Assembly: GCA_964016885.1 (NCBI GenBank)
Contig: OZ024751.1
Coordinates: forward strand, 39,494,001-39,558,000
Direction of reading: 5' to 3'
From: Eledone cirrhosa
Taxonomy: Eukaryota
DNA length: 64,000 nucleotides
Made by a program: the position numbers and the translations under genes. Below, piece after piece: positions 36,801-39,800 of this stretch; the stretch's first letter is position 1; each line of letters begins with the position of its first letter. The notes under the pieces were generated by a model. That model was not told where the DNA came from. It made no database searches and saw nothing but the letters and a program-made list of their open reading frames with translations.

Positions 36801-39800
36801 TATGCGTGAACGGCAAAGCATAAACAAACTAAAGGAGAAATTAGGAATAAGAGGGATCAGATGCTGTTTACTCGAGAGAAGACTACGTTGGTACGGTCAC
36901 ATGATGCGCATGTATAAAAAAAGTGCAGGGCGATAAAAATAGATGGTAGCCACGGAGTAGGCAGACCCAGAAAAACCTGGGACGACTTGCTAAACCCCGA
37001 CCTCACACACTTACACCTCTCCAAGACAATGTCACTGGACCGAGTTCTTTGGCGATACACAGTAATACAGAAGACCCGCCTTGCCTAAGTACAAAGCGAA
37101 ACCTACAGTCAGTAGGCACCTCTAACAAAAATACACCCCGGCCCCACTACCCCCACCCCACCCACACCACCCCTTCCAATGTAAAGTTATGTTGGTACCA
37201 CAGCATCCAGTCCGAAACAAATGAGGTCGTGTAGGTGTCACGACAAAAAAACACAGTCCACGCTGTAATGTGGCCATGTAGGTAACACGGTAAAAACCTC
37301 CCAGTCCACATTGTAAATGTGGTTGGTGTTAGGAAGGGCATCCAGCAGTAGAAAACCCGCCAGACAGTCCTATACGAGCAAGACAACCAATCTTGCCTCA
37401 AGTGGGAAAATTCCCGTCCAAACCCATGCTAGCGTGGAAGATGGACGTTAAACGATGATGATGATGATATATATATATATGTGTACATATATATATAAAT
37501 ATGTACATATATATATAAATATGTACATATATATATATACATAAATATATAAATATGTACATACACATATATATATATATATACATGTACATATATATAT
37601 ATATATATATGTACATATTTACCCACCCTTACAAGCAGGGAAAAGTGGACGTAAAATGATGATGATATATATATATGTACATATATATATACACATATAT
37701 ATATATATACATATATATATACATATATATATATACATATATATATACATATATATATATACATATATATATACATATATATATATACATATATACATAT
37801 ATATATACATATATATATATACATATATATATATATATACATACATATATATATATACATACATATATATATATACATACATACATATATATATATACAT
37901 ACATATATATATATACATACATATATATATACATATACATATATATATATACATATATAATAATATATATGCAGTGAGAAACACAGTAAACCGTGTGTCT
38001 AATATTACAAGGGTTGAAAAACAACATTTATTTGAAATATTTAACCAAGAAGCAGACAGAATGATAAAATAAAATTATATTATTATACGAACCGCCTCAA
38101 TAACAATTACATCTCTCGGACAGATTATCCCTAATCTGTTTCGCCCTTGTATAATAATATAATTTTATTTTATCATTCTGTCTTCTTCTTGGTTAAATAT
38201 TTCAAACAAATGTGGTTTTTCAACCCTTGTAATATTAGACACACAGTTTACTGTGTTTCTTACTGCATATATATTATTATTATACGGCTCAGTATTTTAT
38301 ACTTGGAGCTTAATAATTACAGGGTTTCAATAGGAGCCATTAACTCTAATTTTCATTTATATTTCTGCTCCCTCACAAGTTGAGCTTATTAAGTTGCGTG
38401 TGTTGGACTGTTGTTTCTATCCAGTACACGCTTACCACGTTTGACTAGTGGCGCACAAGGTGATAAATTCATCTTTCTGTGTGAACGTTGGTACATAGTG
38501 TTTGTCGCATTTAATCAGATTCTCTCGCTGATGATGCCCATGGATTATCTGTTGCAAACACACTTAGGGCGAAACAGATTAGGGATAATCTGTCCGAGAG
38601 ATGTAATTGTTATTGAGGTGGTGTGTATAATAATATAATTTTATTTTATCATTCTGTCTGCTTCTTGGTTAAATATTTCAAACAAATGTGGTTTTTCAAC
38701 CCTTGTAATATTAGACACACAGTTTACTGTGTTTCTTACTGCATATATATTATTATTATACGGCTCAGTATTTTATACTTGGAGCTTAATAATTACAGGG
38801 TTTCAATTGGAGTCATTAACTCTAATTTTCATTTATATAAATATATACATATATATATACATATATATATATATATACATATATATATATATATATATAT
38901 ATACATATATATATACATATATATATACATATATATATACATATATATATACATATATACATACATATATATATACATATATATATACATATATATATAC
39001 ATATATATATACATATATATATACATATATATATACATATATATATACATATATATATACATATATATATACATATATATATACATATATATATACATAT
39101 ATATATACATATATATATACATATATATATACATATATATATACATATATATACATATACATATATACATATACATATATATATATACATATACATATAT
39201 ACATATACATATACACATATACATATACATATATATATACATACATATATATATACATATATATATATATACATATATATATACATATATATATATACAT
39301 ATACATATATACATATACATATACACATATACATATACATATATATATACATACATATATATATACATATATATATACATACATATATATATACATATAT
39401 ATATATATACATATATATATACATATATATATACATACATATATATATACATATATATATACATACATATATACATATATATATACATATATATATACAT
39501 ATATATATACATATATATATATACATATATATACATATATATATATATATATACATATATATATATATATATACATATATATATACATATATATATACAT
39601 ATATATATATATATATACATATATATATATATATATATATATATATACATATATATATATATATACATATATATATATATATATATATATACATATATAT
39701 ATACATATATATACATATATATATACATATATATATACATATATATATACATATATATATACATATATATATACATATATATATATATATATATATATAT

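Follow-up and report, generated by a model that had tools for sequence, protein, structure and literature searches.

The window, a 64,000-nt stretch of the Eledone cirrhosa genome (GCA_964016885.1, contig OZ024751.1, positions 39,494,001 to 39,558,000 of the forward strand), contains an element made of a direct arm of 691 nt with a period of 476 nt, set beside an inverted arm and enclosed by (TA)n tracts. A sequence-only reading of this DNA had described about 1.45 tandem copies of a 476-nt unit, a truncated inverted copy at 37958-38146 and (TA)n flanks. Alignment agreed with that layout: 38148-38362 matches 38624-38838 at 98.6% with a period of 476 nt, the inverted copy spans 37953-38147 and is 95.9% identical to 38566-38760, and TA-rich tracts cover 37467-37970 and 38837-40424. 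Positions in the unit are numbered from u1 = 38595, the first base past the cut site. The features of the locus are:

37467..37952 (TA-rich to 37970), no strand: left TA-rich microsatellite tract, the insertion target (sequence reading)
37953..38147, minus strand: inverted arm (aligned over 195 columns)
38112..38146, minus strand: hammerhead 3' half within the inverted arm, with GAAA, stem III, the cut site and the 3' strand of stem I; CUGAUGA is absent and the motif is incomplete
38148..38838, plus strand: direct arm, 691 nt or 1.45 units, 5'-truncated at u30 and ending at distal site A (u244)
38148..38362, plus strand: upstream partial repeat resembling the pseudo-LTR (pLTR) of a Penelope-like element (PLE), a copy of 38624-38838 over 215 nt
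38521..38601, plus strand: type I hammerhead, stems I/II/III of 7/4/8 bp, CUGAUGA with an extra U, GAAA and GUC
38582..38585, plus strand: loop 3, GGGA, variable across the family
38594..38595, plus strand: predicted self-cleavage site, and the ligation junction if a circle forms; the junction 22-mer has 597 exact genome matches
38739..38764, plus strand: site B (u145-170), AT-rich, the proximal preferred 3' end, used by 83 of 195 family arms
38753..38838, plus strand: tail of ~86 nt between sites B and A, carried by only one arm of inverted insertions
38830..38838, plus strand: site A (u236-250, mostly u244), the distal preferred 3' end, used by 83 of 195 arms, 80 of which then run into TA repeats
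38839..40424 (TA-rich from 38837), no strand: right TA-rich microsatellite tract (sequence reading)

The inverted arm starts at u448 inside the ribozyme, crosses the cut site and ends without a tail at proximal site B (~u162). A B end on the left and an A end on the right is the arrangement typical of the family. The longest ATG-started ORF in the direct arm has 57 codons. As the inverted arm holds only the 3' half of a hammerhead, the window copy has a single complete ribozyme and therefore cannot itself release a circle. We take the locus as a likely product of insertion, not a source of circles, and as a likely dead end: its only complete ribozyme would be paired by the inverted arm in read-through RNA. 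To the left, 36184-37470 resembles the 3' region of a LINE in decayed form; it contains a PHD-finger match, and its end, (GAT)n, directly adjoins the TA tract.

The complete type I hammerhead that had been proposed at 38521-38601 stood up to inspection, as the core boxes, three stems and GUC are all present. Stem I (38521-38527/38595-38601) has 7 bp, stem II (38536-38539/38567-38570) has 4 bp and a 27-nt loop, and stem III (38574-38581/38586-38593) has 8 bp and the GGGA loop. CUGAUGA lies at 38528-38534 and GAAA at 38571-38574; an extra U at 38535, directly after CUGAUGA, had been missed in the earlier description. By canonical hammerhead numbering we take cleavage to follow C17 of the GUC, at 38594. 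A strict hammerhead descriptor gave a single match in the window, and none across 200 shuffles. Searching with covariance models of the Infernal type, as had been suggested, did not bear the motif out: the Rfam hammerhead models gave no match at the gathering score or at E<=10, which may be due to the long loop 2 and stem III. For 38521-38601 the active fold lies 1.1 kcal/mol above the predicted minimum, with predicted probabilities of 0.30 for stem II and 0.9-1.0 for stems I and III; the longer stretch 38490-38640 is predicted to misfold. The family-typical copy L010 is predicted to fold outright into the hammerhead, and L015 and L055 to favour other folds.

Conservation across the family suggests that the ribozyme is under selection. 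In copies not selected on the core, CUGAUGA is intact in 38/38 and GAAA in 39-41 of 41. Over stems I and III and the cut site, where none of the 30 positions served in locus selection, subfamilies differ at a single position, where U-A becomes U-G and the pair is kept. Elsewhere in the unit 66/326 positions are polymorphic (Fisher p=0.012 against the ribozyme stems and cut site), and in loop 3 4/4 are. Aligned together, 12 diverse copies give a fold with the same three stems, and 1/18 pairs show a two-sided compensatory change. As regards a loop 1-loop 2 tertiary contact, stems I (7 bp) and II (4 bp) are near canonical spacing, and the alignment fold holds no conserved pairing beyond the three stems. 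Constant stems amid variable loops point to selection on a predicted self-cleaving activity, and it is very probable that a functional ribozyme exists in the family. In some copies loop 3 is GGGA, in others UCCC, its reverse complement, or a longer loop. Set against the constancy of stems I and III and of the cut site, this variation means that no GNRA cap is conserved; the cap that had been noted on stem III is present in the window but is a subfamily accident, and its variability rules it out as a functional feature. The long stable stem III had also been called unusual. At 8 bp it does exceed the 1-2 bp usual for canonical metazoan type I motifs (PMC4209133, in the part consulted), but in the available text of PMC7761336 a stable helix III is usual in invertebrate retrozymes.

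Within loop 2, 38542-38553 repeats the 3' strand of stem III at 10/12 positions and varies unusually little for loop sequence; it may have arisen by local duplication or be a regulatory decoy. Two roles for it, as a decoy or in pairing with the strand 5' of stem I, found little support: the predicted probability in the circle is <=0.01, and the 5' partner varies without compensation. An ORF starting from the AUG in the ribozyme core, in the manner of the anole PLE, was discarded, as it has ~34 codons in a frame not kept across subfamilies.

The unit belongs to a large family. In the 3.0-Gb assembly it has 1294 candidate places, the best 40 of which were scored and are 90-100% identical; thus the genome-wide BLAST proposed for tandem copies with permuted ends found a unit that is not single-copy. 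Exact genome matches number 219 for the pattern of core plus stem II and 597 for the cut-site 22-mer, against 0 for each reversed control, and they show copies that are dispersed, not arrayed. We fetched 120 loci (the 30 best BLAST matches and 90 from the first 100 pattern matches) and, after removing 8 same-site or segmental duplicates, analysed 112. Most have a tandem period of 465-480 nt, the unit has a GC content of 35%, and there are several subfamilies, with identity down to ~75%. The family is also present in contigs of two sequencing runs from one sample, of a kind not recorded. Arms reach 3.2 units or 1501 nt, and neither the units nor the stretches between them hold an ORF. An arm with two complete ribozymes occurs in 8/112 loci (1/86 pattern-selected, 7/26 BLAST-ranked); two consecutive ribozymes, which the 2026 preprint of Li et al. 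(10.64898/2026.07.22.740005) takes as the mark of an active copy, are thus found in the family and not in the window copy. Four exact cut-site matches, one inverted and three in tandem at spacings of 472 and 944 nt, lie at G000 C1:42756498-42758829, a candidate multi-ribozyme source copy. Like other retrozyme units, this one is short, non-coding and low in GC, has a single type I hammerhead and forms head-to-tail repeats, and as a dispersed multicopy family it co-occurs with autonomous PLEs. The earlier proposal of a retrozyme-type unit accordingly gains from its copy number, its permuted 5' ends and its PLE-type tandem and inverted insertions. The element is probably a retrozyme, of a known kind in a new lineage.

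The 3' ends of the copies are fixed and their 5' ends are scattered round the unit. Among 195 arms in the 112 loci, 83 end at site A, 83 at site B, 86 nt away, and 29 elsewhere; 148 of the 166 A or B ends abut TA repeats (A 80, B 68). Inverted insertions, with arms joined head to head and 3' ends outward, make up 73/112 loci. In the 57 of these with both ends at A or B, the ends are A/B in 55, B/B in 2 and A/A in none, where 28.5 mixed pairs would be expected if ends were independent (binomial p ~1e-14); 16/73 have an end at neither site. Some apparent B/B pairs were copies split at site B by a later insertion of ~180 nt, and bridging such interruptions changed the A/B, B/B and A/A counts from 48/8/0 to 55/2/0. 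Pattern-selected loci alone give A/B in 46/48. Target-site duplications are unreadable in (TA)n. The retrozyme ends inspected carry no poly(A) or LINE-type tail. L1-style twin priming, in which the first arm halts at the second primer, was rejected, as 49/55 A arms pass site B. A SINE-like repeat of ~100-400 nt is inserted at site B, in either orientation, in 10/112 loci (L034, L035, L036, L045, L102, L107, L108, L113, L121 and L129), marking it as a target hot spot.

The same genome holds autonomous PLEs that end in the same way. From 10,596 GIY-YIG candidates, the best 150 of which were scored, we recovered PLEs with long ORFs that encode RT and GIY-YIG. L081, L083 and L084 have a CX4CxxC linker between RT and EN, within the CX2-5CxxC type that PMC8557442, as far as consulted, ties to Neptune/Nematis elements and a microsatellite bias; we call them Neptune-type by this linker, which Nematis has as well. 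At least three PLE families have two end sites ~40-65 nt apart, both abutting (TA)n, and a fourth has a TA run at the proximal site. ORF-bearing PLEs have one tailed and one tail-less end (A/B) in 9/9 resolved inverted insertions, 8 of them in one family (7 selected for one tailed arm) and 1 in another, a multi-unit locus (L225-L227) whose ends could not be resolved being left out. In tandem PLE copies the tail continues into the ORF's beginning, with an ATG within ~30 nt. The order ribozyme, site B, tail, site A, body is common to PLE and retrozyme; in place of the PLE's ORF, the retrozyme holds 232 nt of non-coding sequence and then the next ribozyme.

One PLE family is very young: it has near-identical copies, a minimal hammerhead in the 3' region and a 4.2-kb head-to-tail unit. 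It includes the Neptune-type L261, L262 and L260 (G000 C2:303.99 Mb, C2:216.79 Mb and C3:186.08 Mb), and 40/40 scored copies are ~100% identical over 386 nt. This apparently intact element is a candidate for an active PLE. The 3' regions of L081, L096, L098 and L099 hold, by eye, apparent degenerate hammerheads in which the first core box is altered and an ACCGGT palindrome occurs. By eye, the tails of four PLE families share a CYYGTGT-like motif, which the retrozyme tail lacks. A cognate PLE was sought by homology, and BLAST of 40 loci and a DNA profile search of 85 gave nothing usable. Short-loop ribozyme relatives were also considered as partners and set aside: there were 5 pattern matches, one of them a deleted family copy, and none was seen adjoining an RT or GIY-YIG ORF.

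Since its insertion ends match PLE insertion ends in the same genome, the retrozyme likely borrows PLE enzymes, and its mobilisation by them appears highly probable. The paired tail/no-tail ends in both retrozyme (55/57) and ORF-bearing PLEs (9/9) support this, and the copies also have the 5' truncation, partial tandems, inverted arrangement and microsatellite targets of PLE insertions.

What RNA served as template is less clear. The cut site is crossed without an indel within 5 nt in 154/155 arms, and 2/195 arms start within 5 nt of it against 4.5 expected; together with arms of up to 3.2 units, this argues that linear self-cleaved RNA was not the usual template. Turns agree at 1430/1456 diagnostic sites in tandem and at 1490/1523 in inverted arms. 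Overlapping turns within a locus are closer to each other than to the median other locus in every case (tandem 70/70, inverted 80/80), usually not closer than to the nearest other locus, and have 54/625 rare variants in common. Stopping rises past the previous-turn site A, in a post hoc comparison, from 35 stops in 12,624 nt to 30 in 3,315 for A arms (p=4e-6) and from 40 in 10,560 to 13 in 1,539 for B arms (p=0.014), which per 100 nt is a ~2- to 3-fold increase (0.28 to 0.90 and 0.38 to 0.84). Such a rise is expected if synthesis on a circle meets A-primed cDNA; it also fits transcripts that start in the upstream repeat. The free passage of site B by A arms, with little rise in stopping, is not predicted by simple collision on one circle. 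In its predicted circular fold the unit exceeds shuffles in stability (z = -2.7) and has stems I and II disrupted (probability <=0.06). L055 and L057, sibling insertions at G000 C1:400.85 and 402.80 Mb, agree in register at three points where the upstream turn differs from the downstream one, although their junctions and flanks are unlike. Inheritance of these unit differences in register calls for a template holding two unlike units; the pair is a lead to a multi-unit source locus. In-register recurrences overall number 15, within chance (simulated 5-17). On balance we lean, if only slightly, towards a circular RNA as the predicted main template.

Other origins have to be weighed against a PLE-mobilised retrozyme. 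One possibility is that the unit is a mere terminal repeat (pLTR) of an unsampled autonomous PLE and the loci its 5'-truncated insertions. The autonomous PLEs of this genome have ribozyme, site B, tail and site A in the same order, an additional U following A9 is a PLE hammerhead hallmark according to the part of PMC4209133 consulted, and the loci searched represent a small part of the 10,596 GIY-YIG candidates. Yet up to 3.2 turns of the unit follow one another head to tail, uninterrupted by an ORF, and where the autonomous tail meets an ATG in ~30 nt, the retrozyme tail meets 232 non-coding nt and a ribozyme; 0/112 copies were seen running into coding sequence. Furthermore, in 85 loci from PLE and short-hammerhead searches, which cover ~13 PLE clusters out of the 10,596 candidates, the unit matched no PLE terminus, and the only profile match was one family copy. 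It had been anticipated that the unit might align solely as such a repeat; we consider this very improbable. A DNA-level satellite, or a LINE-moved SINE with the hammerhead as an inactive relic, has in its favour a motif unrecognised by Rfam, slight covariation and LINE-like remains adjoining the window copy (36184-36693). Against it stand the strictly paired, fixed internal ends, tail-out inversions and TA targets, which are PLE features in the text of PMC8557442 consulted, the lack of LINE-type or poly(A) tails on the ends inspected, the dispersal of the copies, and stems kept amid variable loops. Such an origin is very unlikely.

A third possibility accepts the same PLE-borne element and differs in the template, which would be an uncleaved linear transcript of a copy of between one and three units, started in the upstream repeat. 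Longer arms and matching turns would then come from homology-guided template switches, and the ribozyme would act at another step. In the part of PMC11167929 consulted, the in vitro template of the anole PLE is uncleaved RNA. The in-register inheritance in L055 and L057 fits this account, as do the rise in stopping upstream of site A, if start sites were spread over the upstream repeat, the fact that only 3/89 arms extend past a second cut site, and the single ribozyme in most loci. However, turns agree at 98% of diagnostic sites, so that homogenisation would be needed in nearly every cycle. The 5' ends do not pile up at any start site, shared read-through junctions are absent, near-identical pairs number 1 among 73, and selection on a monomer-competent ribozyme is left unexplained. 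A linear template seems rather unlikely.

Taken together, we find it fairly probable that the retrozyme is copied into TA repeats by the RT and endonuclease of a Neptune-type PLE, probably from circular RNA. A tandem copy with two ribozymes would be transcribed and cut at both, and ligation would close the unit-length RNA into a circle, where the ribozyme is predicted to misfold and be inactive. As the insertion ends suggest, the PLE protein would cleave both strands of a (TA)n target, and DNA synthesis would begin inside the RNA, at site A on one target strand and at site B on the other. Synthesis leaves no seam at the cut site, can run past one unit and has scattered stop points, and where arm pairs survive, their head-to-head joining gives an inverted, tail-out insertion in which only one arm has the 86-nt tail. 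The window copy would be such a product, with a B arm of 195 nt and an A arm of 691 nt. It is possible, if doubtful, that one circular RNA is primed twice by a pair of PLE enzymes, with polymerases that circle and falter on meeting the A-primed cDNA. If so, double priming on a circle made by a ribozyme would have left the tail, inverted arm and pseudo-LTR of PLEs in general, and the 0.47-kb retrozyme RNA would be a minimal substrate for showing it.

Non-LTR retrozymes of coral, mussel and axolotl form circles, and PLE partners have been proposed for them (PMC7229834, Cervera & de la Pena 2020, in the part consulted). The element described here resembles these metazoan elements in that each non-coding unit carries one type I hammerhead, GC is low (35%), repeats run head to tail, PLEs co-occur, and no LTR, PBS or PPT was seen. 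It differs in its 8-bp stem III and 27-nt loop 2, and in occurring mostly as dispersed 0.5- to 1.5-mers with inverted arms instead of arrays. Its unit of 465-480 nt exceeds the 150-450 bp given in the consulted text of PMC7229834 and falls within the 51-972 bp given in that of the preprint (10.64898/2026.07.22.740005). The same portion of the preprint argues for a PLE origin of retrozymes from co-occurrence and pLTR likeness in frogs, reporting such likeness in 24/57 frog families, whereas our element has none in the sampled PLEs; in that study 8/9 predicted frog retrozymes did not cleave in vitro and 1/9 did. Fixed paired ends in (TA)n are not described for retrozymes in the available text of either source. 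Plant LTR retrozymes are, according to the sections of PMC7229834 and PMC7761336 consulted, also non-autonomous and ribozyme-bearing, with a proposed circular RNA intermediate, but have type III hammerheads in LTRs, PBS and PPT, 4-bp target duplications and Gypsy partners, none of which was seen here.

The likeness to EN+ Neptune-type PLEs, as described in the parts of PMC8557442, PMC3846280 and PMC11167929 consulted, includes 5' truncation, partial tandems, the inverted arm, a tail on a single arm, two internal starts downstream of the hammerhead, microsatellite targets and the extra nucleotide after A9. Unlike those elements, the retrozyme is ORF-less and 0.47 kb long against 4.2 kb, its tail has ~86 nt against 30-40 in the PLE literature consulted and ~40-65 in the PLEs of this genome, and its full stem III contrasts with the minimal, dimer-type PLE hammerhead. 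For one PLE, the available text of PMC11167929 reports that two internal RT start sites define the tail in vitro, that both target strands are cut and extended, and that the dominant template is uncleaved RNA. The consulted sections of PMC3846280 and PMC8557442 describe the PLE tail as optional and often at one end only, so the asymmetry of the tail was already known qualitatively for autonomous PLEs. PMC4209133, in the part consulted, reports the extra nucleotide after position 9 in PLE hammerheads and a circle hypothesis for PLEs.

What is new here is an end signature that links a retrozyme to PLE enzymes, together with the strict pairing of two start sites. Which enzyme moves animal retrozymes is an open question, and a 2020 review (PMC7761336, as far as consulted) found no motif in retrozyme repeats that reveals their partner. 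Where the cited papers argue from co-occurrence or sequence likeness, the link drawn here is one of insertion signature, with PLE-specific ends common to young ORF-bearing elements of the same genome. The use of one start site of each kind is a measurable constraint on PLE integration that one-strand in vitro data did not address. As a short non-coding RNA and an apparently intact 4.2-kb PLE occur in one genome, both the partner and the choice between circle and line are testable at the bench.

These findings probably extend retrozymes to a cephalopod. The main text of PMC7229834 contains no cephalopod term, and the 35 species named in the available text of the preprint (10.64898/2026.07.22.740005) include no mollusc. 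The consulted part of PMC6962438 gives 235 Rfam hammerhead matches in the giant squid, and that of PMC13282606, on Octopus vulgaris repeats, lists 31 recently active Penelope-like families and does not mention ribozymes. Our literature search returned no paper on a cephalopod retrozyme or on paired retrozyme ends; subscription journals, repeat databases and supplements could hold either.

Several more hammerhead families occur within the same 64 kb and, judging by core motifs, the window may hold about eight further ribozyme-bearing insertions of other families. Motifs of the form CUGANGA...GAAA lie at 1185, 1967, 13104, 24284/24938, 35873/35892, 54897 and 56194, some as opposite-strand pairs. 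A second, unrelated hammerhead-like family, with 1381 candidate places in the genome, occupies 56400-57560; its cores lie at 56585 (-), 57069 (-) and 57218 (+), arranged as inversions and set among TA tracts.
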